Position numbers and translations under genes: made by a program
Assembly: GCA_023151145.1 (NCBI GenBank)
Contig: JAKLJM010000003.1
Coordinates: 1 to 37,496, forward strand
Length of the DNA stretch: 37,496 bases
Reading direction: 5' to 3'
Source of the DNA: Bacteriovoracaceae bacterium
GTDB taxonomy: Bacteria > Bdellovibrionota > Bacteriovoracia > Bacteriovoracales > Bacteriovoracaceae
Shown here: positions 2,380-31,823 of the stretch, piece after piece
Numbering within the stretch: the stretch's first letter is position 1
Layout of the letters: each line of letters opens with the position of its first letter
Notes under the pieces: generated by a model
Database searches by the model: none
What the model was told of the DNA's origin: nothing
Seen by the model: the letters and a program-made list of their open reading frames with translations, nothing else

Positions 2380-4225
2380 GTTCAGGAAAGTCAGTAAAAA
2401 TTTTGCTCATATCTTGTTCATAAGAATAGGCAAAAAATTCTCTTAAAAATATCTCTTCGTTTGAAAAGTTATAGCTAGGGTGTTTGCTTTTAAAATCTTC
2501 AATAGTTTTTTTATCTAATTTTTTAATATGGTCTTTTAATAATTTTTTAATCTTTGGATGACTGGCAAAAAAAGTGTGTAATCGTTCATGATTTAAAGTA
2601 CTCGTGAAGTTTTTAGTAAACATGTCTTGAGCATCATTTGGATTCATGTTCTTGACACCGTCACCTAGTAACGTAAGTTCGTTAACAACTATTCCATACT
2701 GATTTTTCTCTAGAGATTTCAAAGGAAAATCGGAAACTTGATCCACGTTAAAAAAAGATTTAACAGCTTGAAGACAAACAAGTCCAGGTTTGGATTTTTT
2801 CCATTTTAAATAATCGGAATAGGCTTTTTTAGAAAATGAAATTCCTTTTATAGATAATGAAAACAATGGAAGAGGAAGCTCTTCTGATTTGAAAAGTTTT
2901 TCTTTTACCCCGTAGCAATAGAAGTTTTGGGTAAACTCTTCTTGGTTGTTGATAGCGATGGCTTTAGTGATATTGTCACTGGTGATTTTAGCTTGGTAAA
3001 CATGACTTTGGATAATTCGGCTGTGGGTACTAAAACGATTTTCTATATAACGTTTCCACTGACAGGGATGATTTGAGAATAAATCATTTCCATTGGTGTA
3101 CATGTCTCTTAGCTGAGGAAGTGGGCAAGTTTGATCAAGACGATTAAAGTGAAAGGCTTTAATTAACTCTTCTATATCGGTACTTTTTGGAGTTGGACAT
3201 TTTTCTATTTTTCTAATGTCACACCATCTTTTAAAACATTCTTCACTGTTTTGATCTTTTTCTACGCAAGATTTTAAAACAAAAAACTCCATTCTTTGGA
3301 TCATGTCAGCTCGGCTAGTTGGACGAAAAGCATCAATTTCTGCGCCTAAGACACCTTCTAGATCGATGCTTTGTTTGTTGTTTTTAAGCCAGATGATTTT
3401 TTTTTGATAATCAATTATATACTCATCACCTAAGACTTTAGGGCCGAGATTACCAGCGACTTCTCGATGAGCGAGTGCACCTGATTGACCGGTATACAAA
3501 TAGGCTTCAGTGGAAAACTCTAATGGACCACAGATGGTCTTTTTTAAATTTAAAAAAGAAGGGGCAAACATATTATTTATTTCATAAATTTTTTCAAAGA
3601 ATCGATTTTCTTTCACGAAATGAGTGTGAAAGGTAAGGGGGATTTCGGAGCCGGTATCTAATCTAAGTGGAAAACTTACTTTTGAGTTTGAACAATTAAG
3701 AACAAGTACATCTCTTCCTCGGATCTCAAATGGAAGTTGATATTGAAAACCTTGTGTGGATGCTGGCGAAAAAGTGATGGCGTTTTTAATGAGATCATAT
3801 TTAAGAGGGTATTGTTTTAAAAATGGAGAACCCAAAATACCATCACAACAATCAAGACCATCTTGAACGGTATTAAAGCGTTTATTTTTCATGATATTGG
3901 TAGGCATCTGATTAAAGCTTAAATCATTTATTTTTAAACTTAGCTTCGCACCAAGTGACGTTATTTTTTGATTAAAAGTCGAAACGTCAGTATTTAACGT
4001 GGAGTCCATCTCTAAAGCATTGGCTTTTTTCAATTCTTCAACGACGTCAGGATCAATAAAGTTAACATTTGAACCAGTATCTAATAAAAATTTATAAGGT
4101 TTATCAGAAATTTTAATTTCAACGATAACTAGGCTTGAGATATTGCGTAAAATGGGAAGAGAAGTTTCCGCTTTAAGAGAAAAGGAAAAAAAAGAGAGTA
4201 GAAGAGTTAGTAAACTCATTTTCAT
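2369..4225 (-). CDS. Secreted retropepsin-like aspartyl protease (two DTG lobes) with a long C-terminal region containing HExxH
   Basis: Signal peptide MKMSLLTLLLSFFSFSLKA; FLLDTGS, DGILG, LDTGS, GNLG; C-terminal NHERLH...REFFA. Confidence 0.7.
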   Translation of the reverse strand: MKMSLLTLLLSFFSFSLKAETSLPILRNISSLVIVEIKISDKPYKFLLDTGSNVNFIDPDVVEELKKANALEMDSTLNTDVSTFNQKITSLGAKLSLKINDLSFNQMPTNIMKNKRFNTVQDGLDCCDGILGSPFLKQYPLKYDLIKNAITFSPASTQGFQYQLPFEIRGRDVLVLNCSNSKVSFPLRLDTGSEIPLTFHTHFVKENRFFEKIYEINNMFAPSFLNLKKTICGPLEFSTEAYLYTGQSGALAHREVAGNLGPKVLGDEYIIDYQKKIIWLKNNKQSIDLEGVLGAEIDAFRPTSRADMIQRMEFFVLKSCVEKDQNSEECFKRWCDIRKIEKCPTPKSTDIEELIKAFHFNRLDQTCPLPQLRDMYTNGNDLFSNHPCQWKRYIENRFSTHSRIIQSHVYQAKITSDNITKAIAINNQEEFTQNFYCYGVKEKLFKSEELPLPLFSLSIKGISFSKKAYSDYLKWKKSKPGLVCLQAVKSFFNVDQVSDFPLKSLEKNQYGIVVNELTLLGDGVKNMNPNDAQDMFTKNFTSTLNHERLHTFFASHPKIKKLLKDHIKKLDKKTIEDFKSKHPSYNFSNEEIFLREFFAYSYEQDMSKIFTDFPELKK

Positions 4226-17790: not shown

Positions 17791-17818
17791 AAAAAAGGGG
17801 AGAATTTCTTCTCCCCCC
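17791..17818 (-). terminator. Intrinsic terminator of peptide-1 mRNA
   Basis: Minus strand GGGGAGAA-gaaa-TTCTCCCC-TTTTTT, just after the TAG. Confidence 0.85.
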
Positions 17819-17823
17819 AAATA

Positions 17824-17913
17824 CTAGAACCACTCCATTAACAATTTTAAAACAGTTGTTAGCAGTTTTAAAATCTGGATAATAATTTCTAGCACTTTCA
17901 ATGCTTTGAGCAT
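17824..17913 (-). CDS. 29-aa amphipathic peptide MLKALKVLEIIIQILKLLTTVLKLLMEWF, putative type I toxin (TisB/DinQ-like)
   Basis: GGAGG 5 nt before the ATG; 90-nt ORF; paralogue of identical length with synonymous/conservative changes; terminator follows the stop. Confidence 0.82.
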   Translation of the reverse strand: MLKALKVLEIIIQILKLLTTVLKLLMEWF

Positions 17914-17960
17914 CCTTGCCTCCAGAAGATCGCCTTCATTGGCGTAAGGAGCTCACCGCT

Positions 17961-17988
17961 TTGATCTTATTTATAAATGTGATAACAT
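17961..17988 (+). promoter_or_regulatory. sigma70-like promoter of sRNA-1
   Basis: TTGATC-N16-TAACAT with extended -10 TG; same position in copy 2. Confidence 0.6.
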
Positions 17989-17993
17989 TAACT

Positions 17994-18069
17994 ACCCCCA
18001 AATACAGGTTTGTTAGACCTGCGGGAATTTTCAATGCTTGAAGACCCCTCTTATCACGAGGGGTTTTTT
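17994..18069 (+). ncRNA. Putative antitoxin sRNA-1 (~75 nt; 5' end inferred)
   Basis: Bounded by a promoter and terminator ACCCCTC/GAGGGGT-TTTTT; internal hairpin CAGGT/ACCTG; two 11-nt segments complementary to the peptide-1 mRNA. Confidence 0.72.
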
Positions 18070-18161
18070 ATTTTCTTTTTTTTTTTAATATTTTGGTAAT
18101 TTTTTTCTCTTATGAAATCAAATAATCGAATTGGTAGGGATTTAATTTTTTAATGTGAAAT

Positions 18162-18189
18162 AAAAAAGGGGAGAATTTCTTCTCCCCCC
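18162..18189 (-). terminator. Intrinsic terminator of peptide-2 mRNA
   Basis: Identical to 17791-17818. Confidence 0.85.
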
Positions 18190-18194
18190 AAATC

Positions 18195-18284
18195 CTAGAA
18201 ATTAGCTTTTAACAGTCTTAAAATTATTACTAGTAATTTTAAGACCAGAACTAACTGCTCTAAGATTTTTAATGCCTTAAGCAT
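18195..18284 (-). CDS. 29-aa amphipathic peptide MLKALKILEQLVLVLKLLVIILRLLKANF, putative type I toxin
   Basis: GGAGGCAAGG-ATG, 90-nt ORF, 16/29 identical to peptide 1. Confidence 0.82.
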   Translation of the reverse strand: MLKALKILEQLVLVLKLLVIILRLLKANF

Positions 18285-18330
18285 CCTTGCCTCCGTAGAT
18301 TAGCCTTCAGTGGCCATAGGAGCTCTCGGC

Positions 18331-18358
18331 TTGAAAAAAATGATAAAAGTGCTAGAAT
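18331..18358 (+). promoter_or_regulatory. sigma70-like promoter of sRNA-2
   Basis: TTGAAA-N16-TAGAAT with extended -10 TG. Confidence 0.65.
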
Positions 18359-18364
18359 TAGTTA

Positions 18365-18440
18365 TCCCCTAAGTCCAGGTTTACTAGACCTATTAGGAGA
18401 TTTTTAATGCCTAAACCCCTCTTACCACGAGGGGTTTTTT
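18365..18440 (+). ncRNA. Putative antitoxin sRNA-2 (~75 nt; 5' end inferred)
   Basis: Promoter and terminator bound it; hairpin CCTAA..AGGT/ACCT..TTAGG; 15-nt perfect and 11-nt G:U-containing complementarity to peptide-2 mRNA. Confidence 0.72.
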
Positions 18441-18507
18441 ATTTTCAACAGTGTTGTCTTTTTGTCTTAGGACTATTTCTGAATTGAAATTTTTGGTTGA
18501 TATTGAA

Positions 18508-18996
18508 TTAGCTCTGAAAAAATTTTTGAAAATAATCAGATCCATAATTAATAAATTTATTTTCAAAAATCATTTTTTGAATTTTATCTTGGCTAGCCCA
18601 GTTGATTTCACTCACATCTTCTGGGCAAATAATTGTTTCTGAAAGAGAAACATCCATCTGAGTTACATAAATGTCAGTGTGTTCATTTTTACCAAGTTCA
18701 GAAAATAGAAGTTGAGTTTTGTTAGGATTGATTTTTAGCCCGATTTCTTCACCTGTTTCTCTAATAATTGCTGTTAGGCTATCTTCTCCTGCATGTGCTG
18801 AATCACCTGTTGTTGCCCAAAAACCGGGCATCCAATTTAGGGTTTCTGATCTTCGTTGAATTAGATATTCATTTTTGGAATTGATGATCCATATGTGAAC
18901 GACTTAGTGAAATTCACCTTCACTTAATTTTTCAGATCGCTTTATCGTGCGACCTGTTTTGGTTCGATCTTTATTATAAATATCCCAAATTTCCAT
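18508..18996 (-). pseudogene. NUDIX hydrolase (IDI-like) with an in-frame TAA at codon 31
   Basis: MEIWDIYNKDRTKTG...GEFH*VVHIWIIN...LIQRRS...PGFW...GED..AIIRETGEEIG; stop at 18904-18906. Confidence 0.82.
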
Positions 18997-19023
18997 ATCG
19001 TTTTATGTTGAATTATACGCAAA

Positions 19024-19090
19024 AAAAAAGCCCCGCAATTGCGAGGCTTTCATTTTTAATTTTTTTTGATCAGAAAAAGTGGCGGGAGCG
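19024..19090. repeat. att direct repeat, island end distal to the tRNA: displaced tRNA-Asp 3' end plus terminator
   Basis: AAAAAAGCCCCGCAATTGCGAGGCTTTCATT...TTTTTGATCAGAAAAAGTGGCGGGAGCG, near-identical to 31691-31757. Confidence 0.92.
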
Positions 19091-28712: not shown

Positions 28713-29435
28713 TCATTTGCCTAAGATCTTATTCATAGTTCGGTATAAAGAAATTTTAATACGATCTCTTTCTAGTAAACCGACTACCGTTGATGGTAAA
28801 AAACTTATTGAATTTGCATTTAGTATTTTTGATTTTTCCTTTTCGCTTAAGAAAGGATTGATAAAATTCTTTTGTCCAGCCGCTTCTGAAGCACCACCAA
28901 AACCACCAATAACATAGGACGGGATTCGATGTTTTTCAGCTATTGTTAATTCCTCGGGAACACCGGGTTTTATTTGAGTATTGGGGTGAAGCTTACCACC
29001 TATTGATAGAATACAATTAGCATCATAGATCATTTTTTCACGTAAATTTCTAAGACTATTATTTCTAGCAATAGGATCATTATGGTCTTTACTGTTTTGA
29101 TAGCTTGGTATTTCAATTATGGTGGAGTAGGCATCATGTTTTTTGATGTCACCTTGTCCCCACATAGCGGAAACATATAGTTTAAGTTGTGATTTATTTT
29201 GTGCAAAATTTTTTGCTTGTTCTGCAACAATTGGTGTGAATAGTGGATGAGAGCCGTGAATAATGGTACCTCCTTTTGCAAATATCATTGCTGAGAAATA
29301 TGAGACAAATTCTAGTATGTCCTGGTCAATTAAGGGGTGTGGCCAATATTCGTTTTCTGGAATTGCACCAGATAGCCAAACCTTAATGGATTTCAAGTTT
29401 TTTTGAGGACGAAATTTTTTATATAGGTATGTCAT
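28713..29435 (-). CDS. Stand-alone SLOG-superfamily protein (TIR-associated type)
   Basis: LSGAIP, IIHGSHP, LREKM, SIGG, PGVPEE, GGFGGA. Confidence 0.85.
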   Translation of the reverse strand: MTYLYKKFRPQKNLKSIKVWLSGAIPENEYWPHPLIDQDILEFVSYFSAMIFAKGGTIIHGSHPLFTPIVAEQAKNFAQNKSQLKLYVSAMWGQGDIKKHDAYSTIIEIPSYQNSKDHNDPIARNNSLRNLREKMIYDANCILSIGGKLHPNTQIKPGVPEELTIAEKHRIPSYVIGGFGGASEAAGQKNFINPFLSEKEKSKILNANSISFLPSTVVGLLERDRIKISLYRTMNKILGK

Positions 29436-30604
29436 TGGTCTAAAAACTCTTCAATTTGCTCGTGATGTAAAATAATAATGTTGGAAACAGCTATTTCTGG
29501 AATCTCATTTAAGATTTCATCTATCTCATTTTCAGAACGAGGTTTACCATCGTATATAAAGATATTTTCATTGCGTCTTACATTTAAACCACGAGTATAA
29601 ATAATAAAGTTATTTATAAAAGTATTGTGGATTCCGTCATAGAGGGGGCAATGTGACAGTAGTGTTCGCCAGTCTTTGAATTTTCTTGCTTTTTTAGATT
29701 CAAAAAGTAGTTTAACCTGATCTAGAGTTGACCAGGTATAGCCCTTATCCCTAAACTTATTTGCAACTTCAAATGGGACATTTTTTTTTCTTTTATAAAC
29801 ATCTGCTAAAATTTTAAAAATATCATCAATTATTTCATCAAAATTATTTAGTTGAACGTCAGACTGAGAATATCTATTGAGTGTTTGAAGTTTTCGAAAG
29901 TGAGATCCTTTTTTACCATCATTTCTTATGCAAAGAGGGAGTACCGGAACAAGGTGAGCATGGGCATGATCAATTTCATGGTGAACCCATTTAGAATAAT
30001 CAGCCTCTGGAGTATCAAGTAATAGGACGAGATTAGATTGGATGATCGCCTTGTTAATTTGTTCTTGTACATCCAAACCAATAGTCAAATTTCCTTCATG
30101 GTCTTCGTCTCTATCATCATCTCGCCAGACTTTAAAACCTATATATTGCAGTATGGAAGACAAGGCTATAGCAATATCTTTACCATCTGTAACTCTGTAT
30201 GAGATAAAAATTTGATTATCTTTCGGCAGAATCTTCAATCCAAGGAATGCTCCGACTCGATTTGCTAAGTTATTTTCCCAGTTCTTTTGATTTGTGGAAT
30301 GAGATTTTATTTTTGAAAGTGGTTCATTCGAAATATATTTTTTGTCACTAAATGAAATGGGTATAATTACGGCATTTTTGTCAAAATATGCTTGAAATTT
30401 TATGGCTACGCTTAGAATTTGTTCGTCAATGTTATCATTGTTAAAACAAATTAAAAGGATTGAATTAATATCAAACTGAGTTACCTCACAGGTGACGGGA
30501 TTGACTTTCTCAAAACTAAGTTCAGAATAGCCGTTTTGTAAAACTGAAATGATACTGTTTATTTGATTATCATTGCAGTCATTATTTAAAATTAACACAT
30601 TCAT
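29432..30604 (-). CDS. Long TIR-domain protein
   Basis: IFISYRVTDG, VWRD, VLLLDTP, SKWVHHEI (catalytic Glu). Confidence 0.87.
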   Translation of the reverse strand: MNVLILNNDCNDNQINSIISVLQNGYSELSFEKVNPVTCEVTQFDINSILLICFNNDNIDEQILSVAIKFQAYFDKNAVIIPISFSDKKYISNEPLSKIKSHSTNQKNWENNLANRVGAFLGLKILPKDNQIFISYRVTDGKDIAIALSSILQYIGFKVWRDDDRDEDHEGNLTIGLDVQEQINKAIIQSNLVLLLDTPEADYSKWVHHEIDHAHAHLVPVLPLCIRNDGKKGSHFRKLQTLNRYSQSDVQLNNFDEIIDDIFKILADVYKRKKNVPFEVANKFRDKGYTWSTLDQVKLLFESKKARKFKDWRTLLSHCPLYDGIHNTFINNFIIYTRGLNVRRNENIFIYDGKPRSENEIDEILNEIPEIAVSNIIILHHEQIEEFLDQ

Positions 30605-30607
30605 TTT

Positions 30608-31105
30608 TTAATTTTTACTTCTTATCTTAATTGCTTCATCTATCCATCCCGAAATATTATCAGAAATCCATGCATAAACTTCTTTGCTATCGTAACTGAG
30701 AGGAGGTGAATGTAGTTTTACAATTGTTGAAAGTTTTTTGTCTCCAATGGTAAACCCATCAAAGGGGTTTGGACCAAGGCTACAGGTTTTGCTATCTTTG
30801 TCTTTTAATCCGTTTATAGCTATTCCAACTAGGCCTTTGTTATTATTCCAGGCTTTTTCTATTTCTTTTTTAACCCATTTGCGATTAGCCGTGTCTGTTC
30901 CAACCAGAACAACGACACATTCTTTATTTTTCATCTCTAGGTCTATCCAATTTTCAATGGCCTTATCTCCATTTTTCTTAACCTCTTCCCATTTATTTGC
31001 AGTGACAGGCTCGTTGCCTTCAATTGTTCCTATTTGTCTAACCGTTTGTACTCGCCAAACATCATTATCAAAATGAAAGCTGTAAAAAATTTTTTTCTTT
31101 GCCAT
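30608..31105 (-). CDS. ThsB-like TIR protein
   Basis: FYSFHFDND..R, WEEV, VVLVG..TA.RKWV..EI; GAGGA RBS before ATG 31105. Confidence 0.9.
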   Translation of the reverse strand: MAKKKIFYSFHFDNDVWRVQTVRQIGTIEGNEPVTANKWEEVKKNGDKAIENWIDLEMKNKECVVVLVGTDTANRKWVKKEIEKAWNNNKGLVGIAINGLKDKDSKTCSLGPNPFDGFTIGDKKLSTIVKLHSPPLSYDSKEVYAWISDNISGWIDEAIKIRSKN

Positions 31106-31136
31106 TACTTTATCCTCTTGTAAAAAAAACAATCAA

Positions 31137-31511
31137 CTATTTCAAAATATTTTTTAGATTTTCCCAATCCCACTTATATAGAGTACCTGCATCTGGAACT
31201 CTCGTATAATCGCCATCTTTGTAACCAATGATTTGAACGATTTTTTTGTTATGCTTGCGAGCCATAGCTACTTCTTTCAAGACGCCTGAAGCTTTATGAG
31301 TCCCTTTGCCAACCATTACAATGACTAAGTCTGATGCTTTTATTTTGGCTTCTGCCTTTTCTTCCCAGTCTTTTTCAGGAGCTGCTTCTTTGAGTGAGCA
31401 ATCAAAAATTTCAAAAGGAGAATCTGAATTTTTTGCTTGTTGAAGTAAAAATTCTTTTAAAACTTTATCGTTATCAAAATCAAAACTTATAAAAGCCTTA
31501 GTTTTTGCCAT
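31137..31511 (-). CDS. Short ThsB/MTH538-like TIR protein
   Basis: AFISFDFDND, DCSLKE, VIVMVG..TH.A.GV.KEV. Confidence 0.87.
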   Translation of the reverse strand: MAKTKAFISFDFDNDKVLKEFLLQQAKNSDSPFEIFDCSLKEAAPEKDWEEKAEAKIKASDLVIVMVGKGTHKASGVLKEVAMARKHNKKIVQIIGYKDGDYTRVPDAGTLYKWDWENLKNILK

Positions 31512-31570: not shown

Positions 31571-31690
31571 GGCATTCTGTTTAGAATATGTGGCCCGTAA
31601 AGCTAGCCTTATTGGAGATAGGAAAGTTTGGAAAAATATATTGAAAAGTACAAATGCTTTCACATTTTCCCCAACGAACCCCACAAAAAC

Positions 31691-31757
31691 AAAAAAGCCC
31701 CGCAATTGCGAGGCTTTCATTCTTTTAATTTTTTGATCAGAAAAAGTGGCGGGAGCG
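31691..31757. repeat. att direct repeat, tRNA-proximal; includes the tRNA terminator hairpin
   Basis: Matches 19024-19090; AAAGCCCCGC-AATT-GCGAGGCTTT hairpin with a T-tract on the minus strand. Confidence 0.92.
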
Positions 31758-31823
31758 AAGGGACTCGAACCCTCGGCCTTCTGCGTGACAGGCAGACGTT
31801 ATAACCAACTTAACTACGCCCCC
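31747..31823 (-). tRNA. tRNA-Asp (GTC), 77 nt, encoded CCA
   Basis: Acceptor GGGGGCG/CGCTCCC, anticodon arm TCTGC-CTGTCAC-GCAGA, GGTTCGAGTCC, 3' GCCA. Confidence 0.97.

Follow-up and report, generated by a model that had tools for sequence, protein, structure and literature searches.

Candidate type I toxin-antitoxin cassettes of Bacteriovoracaceae in which a small RNA is predicted to pair with its own message at three sites

How does a small RNA recognize the message of a neighboring ORF that it does not overlap, and what would its binding do? The question is raised by a tandem duplication with a period of 371 bp in contig JAKLJM010000003.1 of a Bacteriovoracaceae bacterium, where the window (the whole stretch of 37,496 nucleotides that was analyzed) holds two cassettes, each made up of a 29-codon amphipathic ORF and, in the opposite orientation, a gene for a small RNA (sRNA) of about 76 nt (n = 2 in the window). 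Per cassette, the ORF and its own terminator lie on the minus strand, and a promoter, a hairpin and a second terminator lie on the plus strand. The reading that we favor, to which we give a probability of roughly 0.7, is that each cassette would be a type I toxin-antitoxin pair in which the sRNA grips its own mRNA at three sites, here called A, B and C, blocking the translation of a membrane toxin. The elements of both cassettes are as follows, with primes marking the sRNA counterparts of the sites.

17791..17818, minus strand: intrinsic terminator of peptide mRNA 1, a 10-pair stem and U run, whose outer 5' arm overlaps site B
17814..17824, minus strand: site B of mRNA 1, nt 90-100 counted from the AUG
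17824..17913, minus strand: peptide ORF 1, 29 aa, amphipathic, likely type I toxin
17838-17842, minus strand: 3' bulge after apical helix 1, nt 72-76
17843..17875, minus strand: predicted apical helix of coding-region hairpin 1, nt 39-51 with 59-71
17856..17862, minus strand: site C of mRNA 1, the 7-nt apical loop (nt 52-58, codons 18-20) with a YUNR start, a predicted kissing loop
17894..17906, minus strand: site A of mRNA 1, with its core at nt 8-20 (codons 3-7)
17919..17923, minus strand: Shine-Dalgarno sequence GGAGG of ORF 1, conserved in the alignment
17931..17964, minus strand: leader of mRNA 1, with a small hairpin at 17931-17944 and, at 17946-17964, a strand whose predicted pairing spans the AUG and the opening codons
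17961..17988, plus strand: promoter of sRNA 1, -35 TTGATC and extended -10 TG-n-TAACAT
17994..18069, plus strand: predicted sRNA 1 with a putative start; B' 17995-18005, loop C' 18010-18016, A' 18027-18039, terminator 18040-18069
18104..18117: conserved dyad TTTC-N6-GAAA of cassette 1, the outermost conserved element
18162..18189, minus strand: intrinsic terminator of peptide mRNA 2
18185-18195 (B), 18227-18233 (C) and 18263-18277 (A), minus strand: sites of mRNA 2
18195..18284, minus strand: peptide ORF 2, 29 aa; Shine-Dalgarno sequence 18290-18294, predicted leader lock 18318-18330
18331..18358, plus strand: promoter of sRNA 2, -35 TTGAAA and extended -10 TG-n-TAGAAT, 10/12 consensus matches
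18364..18440, plus strand: predicted sRNA 2 with a putative start; B' 18366-18376, loop C' 18381-18387, A' 18398-18412, terminator 18413-18440
18476..18489: conserved dyad TTTC-N6-GAAA of cassette 2

The cassette family and its peptides

The genome that holds the window carries eight full cassettes and at least two broken ones, and cassette DNA was matched in 22 of 28 genomes of the same genus and in none of 8 genomes from the family's other genera. A profile of the peptide matched 11 of 301 genomes of the phylum, seven from the genus (the own genome included), three from other genera of the family and one from another family; one of the three other-genus matches was weak (E 0.005) and has an internal stop. 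True cassettes were assigned to Bacteriovorax, Bacteriovoracaceae and Bacteriovoracales, with one contig assigned to Pseudobdellovibrionaceae, and we infer that they come mostly from one genus, Bacteriovorax. The 105 full-length matches, parsed with the -10 of the sRNA promoter as an anchor (8 failed), were reduced by deduplication to 71 distinct cassettes, from which L181 (misparsed) and L069 (an ORF deletion) were dropped to give a final set of 69 intact cassettes; those left out of the 69 were read by hand separately. The sRNA promoters in this set keep a -35 TTG in 94-98% of cassettes. Neighbor genes vary from locus to locus (75 neighbors scanned), and no cassette match was found in 72,556 plasmids or 50,697 phages. 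Five pattern matches on viral contigs were rejected as cassettes, four having no profile match and one covering 37 positions only, and matches of the sRNA model in other genera were weak (E about 0.001-0.01), with the terminator part alone aligned where displayed. For the cassette of a relative, the ORF and most of the cassette were without coverage in four small-share contig runs, which says nothing on expression.

The window cassettes themselves lie about 500 bp outside the left edge of a 12.7-kb island bounded by a direct repeat of about 70 bp (19019-19089 and 31689-31759) that holds the 3' end of a tRNA-Asp gene (tRNA 31747-31823). The island carries three TIR/ThsB-like genes and a SLOG gene (Thoeris-like, 28713-31511), a HEPN/Toprim-N gene, an HD-domain gene and an IS integrase. 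Nearer to the cassettes, a NUDIX-domain ORF (18508-18831) follows a separate ORF of 30 codons (18904-18996) that resembles its N-terminus; the two (18508-18996) are possibly one frameshifted gene.

The peptides (63 distinct, 27-30 aa) are hydrophobic and amphipathic, with a GRAVY of 1.53 and a net charge of +3.2, and among codon positions the third is the most variable and the second the least. The cassette ORFs are short and hydrophobic, under coding constraint, and have a Shine-Dalgarno sequence and a terminator, as looked for in a type I toxin gene; linked to each is a small RNA gene with complementarity to the peptide mRNA and with a promoter, a terminator and three co-evolving sites. The peptide is likely a membrane toxin. 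The nearest profiles are TisB and DinQ, and the nearest neighbors in an atlas (DinQ 0.81, TisB 0.80) serve as leads only. PF13939 (TisB) matches 19 of 44 members at E<=1 (best E 0.0092) and TIGR04459 matches 12 of 44 (best E 0.0036); the window peptides reach 14.9 and 11.5 bits against PF13939, below its cut-off of 25, and such sub-cut-off TisB matches may reflect composition. Beyond TisB, Pfam gave only one Melittin match (E 0.9), a PDB search gave a single match (E 8.2), and Rfam gave nothing at gathering score within the cassettes. A search of 1.84 billion representatives returned eight matches, all from the same peptide family and N-terminally extended. The PXXXG(C) motif described for Fst/Ldr peptides (PMC7472228) is not seen in the column composition, and an Fst/Ldr profile match is likewise absent.

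Predicted pairing between each sRNA and its own message

The original prediction proposed that each sRNA is antisense to its own message through two repeats separated by a hairpin, and these repeats are correct at every coordinate. Site A is repeated at 18029-18039 (= 17896-17906) and 18398-18412 (= 18263-18277), and site B at 17995-18005 (= 17814-17824) and 18366-18376 (against 18185-18195, where both differences give G:U pairs); the hairpin between B' and A' is present in both sRNAs (fold z -3.2 and -2.8). The longest exact repeat between the sRNA body and the gene is 11 nt in cassette 1, reached by 11 of 5000 dinucleotide shuffles, and 15 nt in cassette 2, reached by 0/5000. Targeting by repeats proved to be three-part rather than two-part, as a third repeat, site C, had been missed. 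It forms the loop of the sRNA hairpin: TTGTTAG at 18010-18016 equals 17856-17862, and TTACTAG at 18381-18387 equals 18227-18233. Within the window alone this 7-mer is at chance level (shuffling produced a match of 7 nt in 2234 and 3152 of 5000 cases), and support for site C comes from the homologues, not from the window.

Across the 69 cassettes, site A (nt 8-20 from the AUG) is paired in 65-69 of 69 per column with up to six pair types, and site B (about nt 90-101) in 58-67 of 66-69 at nt 91-100 except at nt 93 (55/68), the registers for both counts having been picked by best match. Mean duplex energies in kcal/mol for cognate and non-cognate pairs were -23.0 and -12.3 at A, -19.4 and -12.6 at B, and -5.7 and -3.7 at C, which puts cognate pairs ahead by about 11 at A and about 7 at B; at none of the three sites was the cognate value reached in 10000 permutations. 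Because kin share sequence, a pair test based on a tree was used, in which the tree was built from non-site columns and 34 edge-disjoint pairs gave a tree-independent test. Cognate pairing beat swapped pairing by 21:1 at A and 22:1 at B, and by 6:0 at C with six informative pairs only (p 0.03), whereas no excess was seen in 12 control pairings, for which segments of the sRNA were set against different parts of the mRNA (p 0.21-1). Nor was a signal seen in the pair test for a fourth contact through the sRNA terminator loop, for an inverted repeat between the sRNA 2 promoter and ORF 1 (12:9), or for cognate pairing of the sRNA with the leader (10:6 and 7:12). Taken site by site, the cognate partner was best or tied in just 32/69 (A) and 31/69 (B). 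In an unguided MI-APC scan the top five pairs fell in A, A, B, the loop-closing pair of the mRNA helix, and C (67/69 rows). Both A and B are thus kept as pairings that co-evolve with their own ORF; loss of either in homologous cassettes, the outcome that the original prediction named as counting against it, is not seen.

Mismatches within the helices point in the same direction. Counted at internal positions only, as helix edges dilute the signal, mismatches compatible with G:U pairing for a plus-strand RNA outnumber the others by 19:2 at A and 22:1 at B, or by 9:2 and 11:1 when each position and type is counted once; with the edges included the bias is weaker, at 113:67 for A and 44:28 for B (p 0.08 for B). 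This bias indicates that selection acts on RNA pairing rather than on DNA copying, and that a plus-strand RNA is the partner of the minus-strand mRNA.

At site C, the 7-nt loop of the sRNA equals mRNA nt 52-58 exactly in 65 of 69 cassettes, in five variants, and parsimony counts 16 changes in the mRNA loop and 17 in the sRNA loop, of which the joint count is 19. Eight cassettes outside the 69 add seven exact loop matches and one with a G:U pair, and include one previously unseen loop variant. The mRNA loop is predicted to be open (P(unpaired) 0.93-1.00) and begins with YUNR in 69/69 cassettes, its first two bases being also fixed by the invariant Leu18 codon; the variable loop base switches residue 19 between Thr, Ala and Val. 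Loops of the YUNR type begin the kiss in both par pAD1 and CopA/CopT (PMC7472228, PMC10798244). The four mismatched cassettes are L063 (905-1205), which joins the ORF of one type to the sRNA of another and has a degenerate dyad, G000 C185:16833, which has a mid-helix Asp and a broken terminator, L163, with a single substitution, and L157, an exception that may be a recombinant. Natural recombinant cassettes with mixed ORF and sRNA types are represented by L063 and by L069, the ORF deletion, L157 being uncertain in this regard.

Could site A alone matter, with B and C as passengers that remain from the duplication behind the sRNA gene, or that gene conversion or linkage keeps alike? Energy is indeed strongest at site A, which in 19 of 69 cofolds computed without pseudoknots is the sole helix, and recombination between paralogues does occur (L063, L069) and can mislead a tree. 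We nonetheless consider this very improbable, given that B co-evolves no less strongly than A (22:1), that copying cannot make a 22:1 bias toward G:U, that a tract of 7 nt would be too short for conversion, and that both loops changed jointly between L169 and L035 although just 26 of 331 columns differ. The same cofolds bear on the original expectation that cognate pairs would join at both sites: A and B form together in 48 of 69, which agrees, whereas A alone forms in the 19 that include window cassette 1, and B only and neither account for one each.

A genome with several cassettes raises the matter of cross-silencing. Within the own genome, summed site energies rank the cognate mRNA best in 8/8 rows. 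The full cofold matrix separates the pairs less clearly, as several sRNAs bind to certain loosely folded mRNAs, and because some sRNAs there bind a non-cognate mRNA better than their own, insulation is not absolute. Comparing the sequences is enough to show that there are three repeats, that these co-evolve, that G:U pairs favor one strand, and that each sRNA has its best summed match among paralogues with its own mRNA. Decayed copies hint at a price: among 24 partial-match stretches that were read, four join the toxin terminator to the sRNA body at B and four join the ORF to the sRNA terminator at A, and from these clean deletion joins in 8 of 24 the repeats seem prone to deletion and kept only in intact cassettes, which suggests that keeping them is costly. 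Orphan sRNA genes with no peptide ORF, some with promoter-like sequence, were also seen (L060, L052, L066, L070, L074) and could silence a paralogue in trans or be remnants. In L065 (about 1150-2450) an insertion that bears inverted terminal repeats apparently splits a cassette within the leader.

Folding of the message, its leader and its promoter

The coding region is predicted to fold as one long hairpin, with the apical helix (39-51:59-71), the bulge (72-76) and a foot (17-30:82-95), followed by the terminator. The apical helix covaries in the pair test (16:2), and 51:59, the pair that closes it, ranks in the top five of the covariation scan, whereas the foot alone does not covary (14:9). 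RNAalifold on 69 mRNAs recovered four elements only: the apical helix, the hairpin of the leader, a short helix that spans the AUG, and the terminator. With nt 17-30 predicted to pair with nt 82-95, A and B would meet at the hairpin foot, and the notion that the sRNA bridges distant start and stop regions gives way to one in which these already adjoin. Site B is also not tied to the stop codon as had been thought, since it stays at about nt 90-101 where the ORF stops at nt 82 (e.g., L036, L056, L116, and L138); its position tracks the hairpin foot and terminator. In the predicted folds the sRNA mirrors the layout of the mRNA in small, as B'-stem-C'-stem-A'. Opening of the terminator, which the original prediction also raised, is seen as a prediction only, the cassette 2 cofold keeping 5/10 terminator pairs and the lowest-energy dimer of cassette 1 pairing at site A only.

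Upstream of the ORF, the leader is predicted to lock the ribosome site, at an opening cost of 15.9 kcal/mol with the lock and 6.6 without it. The lock changes along with the first codons between subgroups of the alignment, with pair tests that are not significant (10:3 and 8:3). The net energy with which the sRNA binds a locked message is modest, at -9.8 kcal/mol on average, and the sRNA adds 2.8 kcal/mol to opening of the ribosome site on the locked mRNA and 10.7 on the unlocked one. The antitoxins of tisB and aapA1 target the activated message (PMC4147584, PMC5416894), and the energies for the unlocked mRNA (6.6 and 10.7 kcal/mol) agree with such targeting. The leader hairpin (17931-17944 and 18303-18315) has a well-conserved loop, mostly AAUGAA, in the first cassette alignment, which loci found later cannot confirm as they came via the same motif. 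Its AUG is not kept in all copies and so is not an upstream ORF; the hairpin is possibly a protein or nuclease site.

It could be asked whether the peptide is a toxin at all, or whether the sRNA instead stabilizes or activates the mRNA, for example by prying the leader lock off at site A. Site A does overlap the outer portion of the leader helix, which is displaced in the cofold, and the peptide profile matches are below cut-off. In the cofold, however, the lock on the AUG is kept and the ribosome site becomes costlier to open once the sRNA is bound, and pairing within the first five codons can repress translation (PMC9486967). The size and charge of the peptide, the multicopy scatter among unrelated neighbors, the orphan sRNAs and the dead ORFs fit toxin-antitoxin systems of type I, and we regard an activating role or a harmless peptide as quite improbable.

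Where the toxin message begins bears on the claim that the two genes are divergent and do not overlap, which is true of the ORF and may not be true of the leader. A conserved sigma-70 -10 box was not found on the minus strand: within 60 nt of four anchors TAnnnT occurs at no offset in at least 30% of cassettes, bar one (29/69) that mirrors the sRNA's own extended -10. A promoter-like sRNA terminator loop was considered and rejected, as its last base is wrong and divergent copies do not have it. With no minus-strand sigma-70 promoter found, the mRNA leader may cover the sRNA gene. In that case the toxin mRNA would start beyond the sRNA terminator near the dyad, the sRNA would also be a full cis-antisense RNA like IsoA1-aapA1, and the three sites would act on a 5'-processed form or atop the cis duplex, a variant of our favored reading that we hold as a tentative possibility, rather unlikely on present evidence. 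It is helped by the want of a -10 box between the leader and the sRNA start and by the dyad TTTC-N6-GAAA, which is the outermost conserved element, lies 45-47 nt past the sRNA terminator in 69/69 cassettes (best window, 6-8/8 matches, 27 offsets searched) and ends 2 nt short of the edge of the 371-bp tandem unit. The -10 box was not found near the dyad either, however, the tandem copy L151 (9+) is without the dyad, pairings available only to a long mRNA show no cognate excess save one that follows from site A, and a perfect cis duplex alone would not hold three partial sites in step.

The dyad is possibly a regulator site for the toxin gene, and if it marks the toxin promoter, the sRNA would also be cis-antisense to the leader. 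As a LexA box it was rejected, the best scores upstream of lexA and recA being 1.1 and 6.8 bits vs. about 18 at cassette sites. In both of these upstream regions (G000:C176 about 3425-3450; G000:C8 about 1800-1825) ACTTACGC occurs as a direct repeat, which makes it a candidate for the LexA box of this genus. A genome-wide scan with the dyad gave no clear regulon, with 8 of 33 non-cassette matches at >=14 bits being intergenic vs. 11% intergenic DNA. About 140 nt downstream of the top non-cassette match, G000:C231:6708 (L241), is a BrnT/CopG type II toxin-antitoxin pair; because the flank of this match resembles that of L035-type cassettes, it may be a remnant.

Under the favored reading, in which the sRNA silences a toxin through three sites, the predicted starting state is one in which the leader covers the AUG and locks the mRNA, with both 7-nt loops and the A' tail of the sRNA open. 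In the order that we infer, the YUNR loop of the mRNA would first kiss the sRNA loop in a fast and specific contact, the single-stranded A' tail would then bind codons 2-7, and strand exchange at the hairpin foot would finally put B' on nt 90-101. The outcome would be a complex resembling a four-way junction, with the ribosome site occluded, the outer arm of the terminator loosened and decay perhaps made faster. The real target would be an activated mRNA in which the leader lock is lost or refolded, and changes in site sequence would keep the up to eight paralogues per genome from cross-silencing.

How the kiss relates to the other contacts depends on geometry. Kissing complexes of more than 6 bp are rare (PMC10798244), and perhaps only about five central pairs of site C form; a lack of complementarity in the flanks keeps the kiss from extending. 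Since it is also separated from the foot by about 25 bp, it is either a transient first step or part of a hairpin bent at the bulge. In the latter case the sRNA would be a miniature mirror of the coding hairpin that holds all three contacts simultaneously, the conserved 5-nt bulge at nt 72-76 bending the hairpin until the 13-bp tip returns to the foot and the short stem of the sRNA closes a triangle. We think this unlikely. If true, the sRNA would recognize an untranslated message by its three-dimensional fold, antisense recognition of this geometry would be new, and the Thr/Ala/Val codon in the loop would be the address that separates paralogues.

Relation to known systems and significance

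The precedents for this arrangement exist singly, as divergent layout, YUNR kiss, dispersed repeats and four-way junction. The zorO/OrzO system of Escherichia coli has a divergent layout. In par pAD1 of Enterococcus faecalis, Fst RNA I and RNA II begin with a YUNR kiss, from which pairing spreads to direct repeats (PMC7472228); the likeness, which for the cassettes is in part predicted, extends to a small membrane peptide, three dispersed contacts, a reversible kiss, a lock on the ribosome site and variable repeat sequences that insulate paralogues (PMC7472228), with the dispersed direct repeats and YUNR kiss of the cassettes being present at the sequence level only. However, the Fst genes are convergent, their kiss forms between overlapping terminator loops and DRa/DRb cover the Shine-Dalgarno sequence and start codon (PMC7472228), whereas the cassettes have the sRNA gene upstream in the opposite orientation with separate terminators at opposite ends, a kissing loop that lies within the coding sequence and is not cis-encoded, and a second helix past the ORF end. 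The tisB/IstR-1 system of Escherichia coli shares the divergent layout and a 29-aa hydrophobic peptide, and would also share trans pairing by repeated sequence and an inert primary mRNA that needs activation before antitoxin binding; IstR-1, however, uses a single 21-nt site in the 5' UTR (PMC4147584), and in the cassettes all three sites are in or after the ORF. The aapA1/IsoA1 system of Helicobacter pylori is similar in its 30-aa peptide and multicopy nature and, going by the predictions for the cassettes, in an inert full-length mRNA and kissing loops that set specificity, but IsoA1 kisses loops of the 5' UTR and extends to a full 76-nt duplex (PMC5416894), as the cassette kiss cannot, and no homology of the peptide or RNA to a curated aapA/IsoA family was found in Pfam or Rfam.

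Outside these, CopA/CopT of plasmid R1 proceeds from a YUNR kiss to a four-way junction (PMC10798244), RNAIII of Staphylococcus aureus combines one duplex with a separate loop-loop contact when acting in trans on coa and rot (PMC8383071), and Sib/ibs uses two recognition domains, one of them coding (PMC4147584). CopA and Sib are fully complementary cis-antisense RNAs and RNAIII is a large global regulator, unlike the cassette sRNA, and a dedicated miniature mirror of the target's coding hairpin is not described for CopA/CopT, RNAIII or Sib in the source text available. The available portions of the literature likewise gave no system whose antisense contacts all fall within or beyond the coding region and persist through compensatory change alone, no description of a three-site antisense geometry, and no type I system or small RNA of such kind for Bdellovibrio/Bacteriovorax, where the supplementary tables of genome-wide toxin-antitoxin screens might list loci. 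The cassettes are likely a new type I toxin-antitoxin family, working like Fst/RNA II with a tisB-like layout and a member of neither. Bdellovibrionota was once classed within the Proteobacteria. A 2025 abstract on type I systems names only Proteobacteria, Firmicutes and Tenericutes (PMC12390103).

Overall, the cassettes represent a candidate type I toxin-antitoxin family in predatory bacteria. Their 69 natural variants form a test set for how pairing in trans co-evolves with protein sequence and how cross-talk between paralogues is avoided, and the cassettes could provide orthogonal RNA switch pairs.
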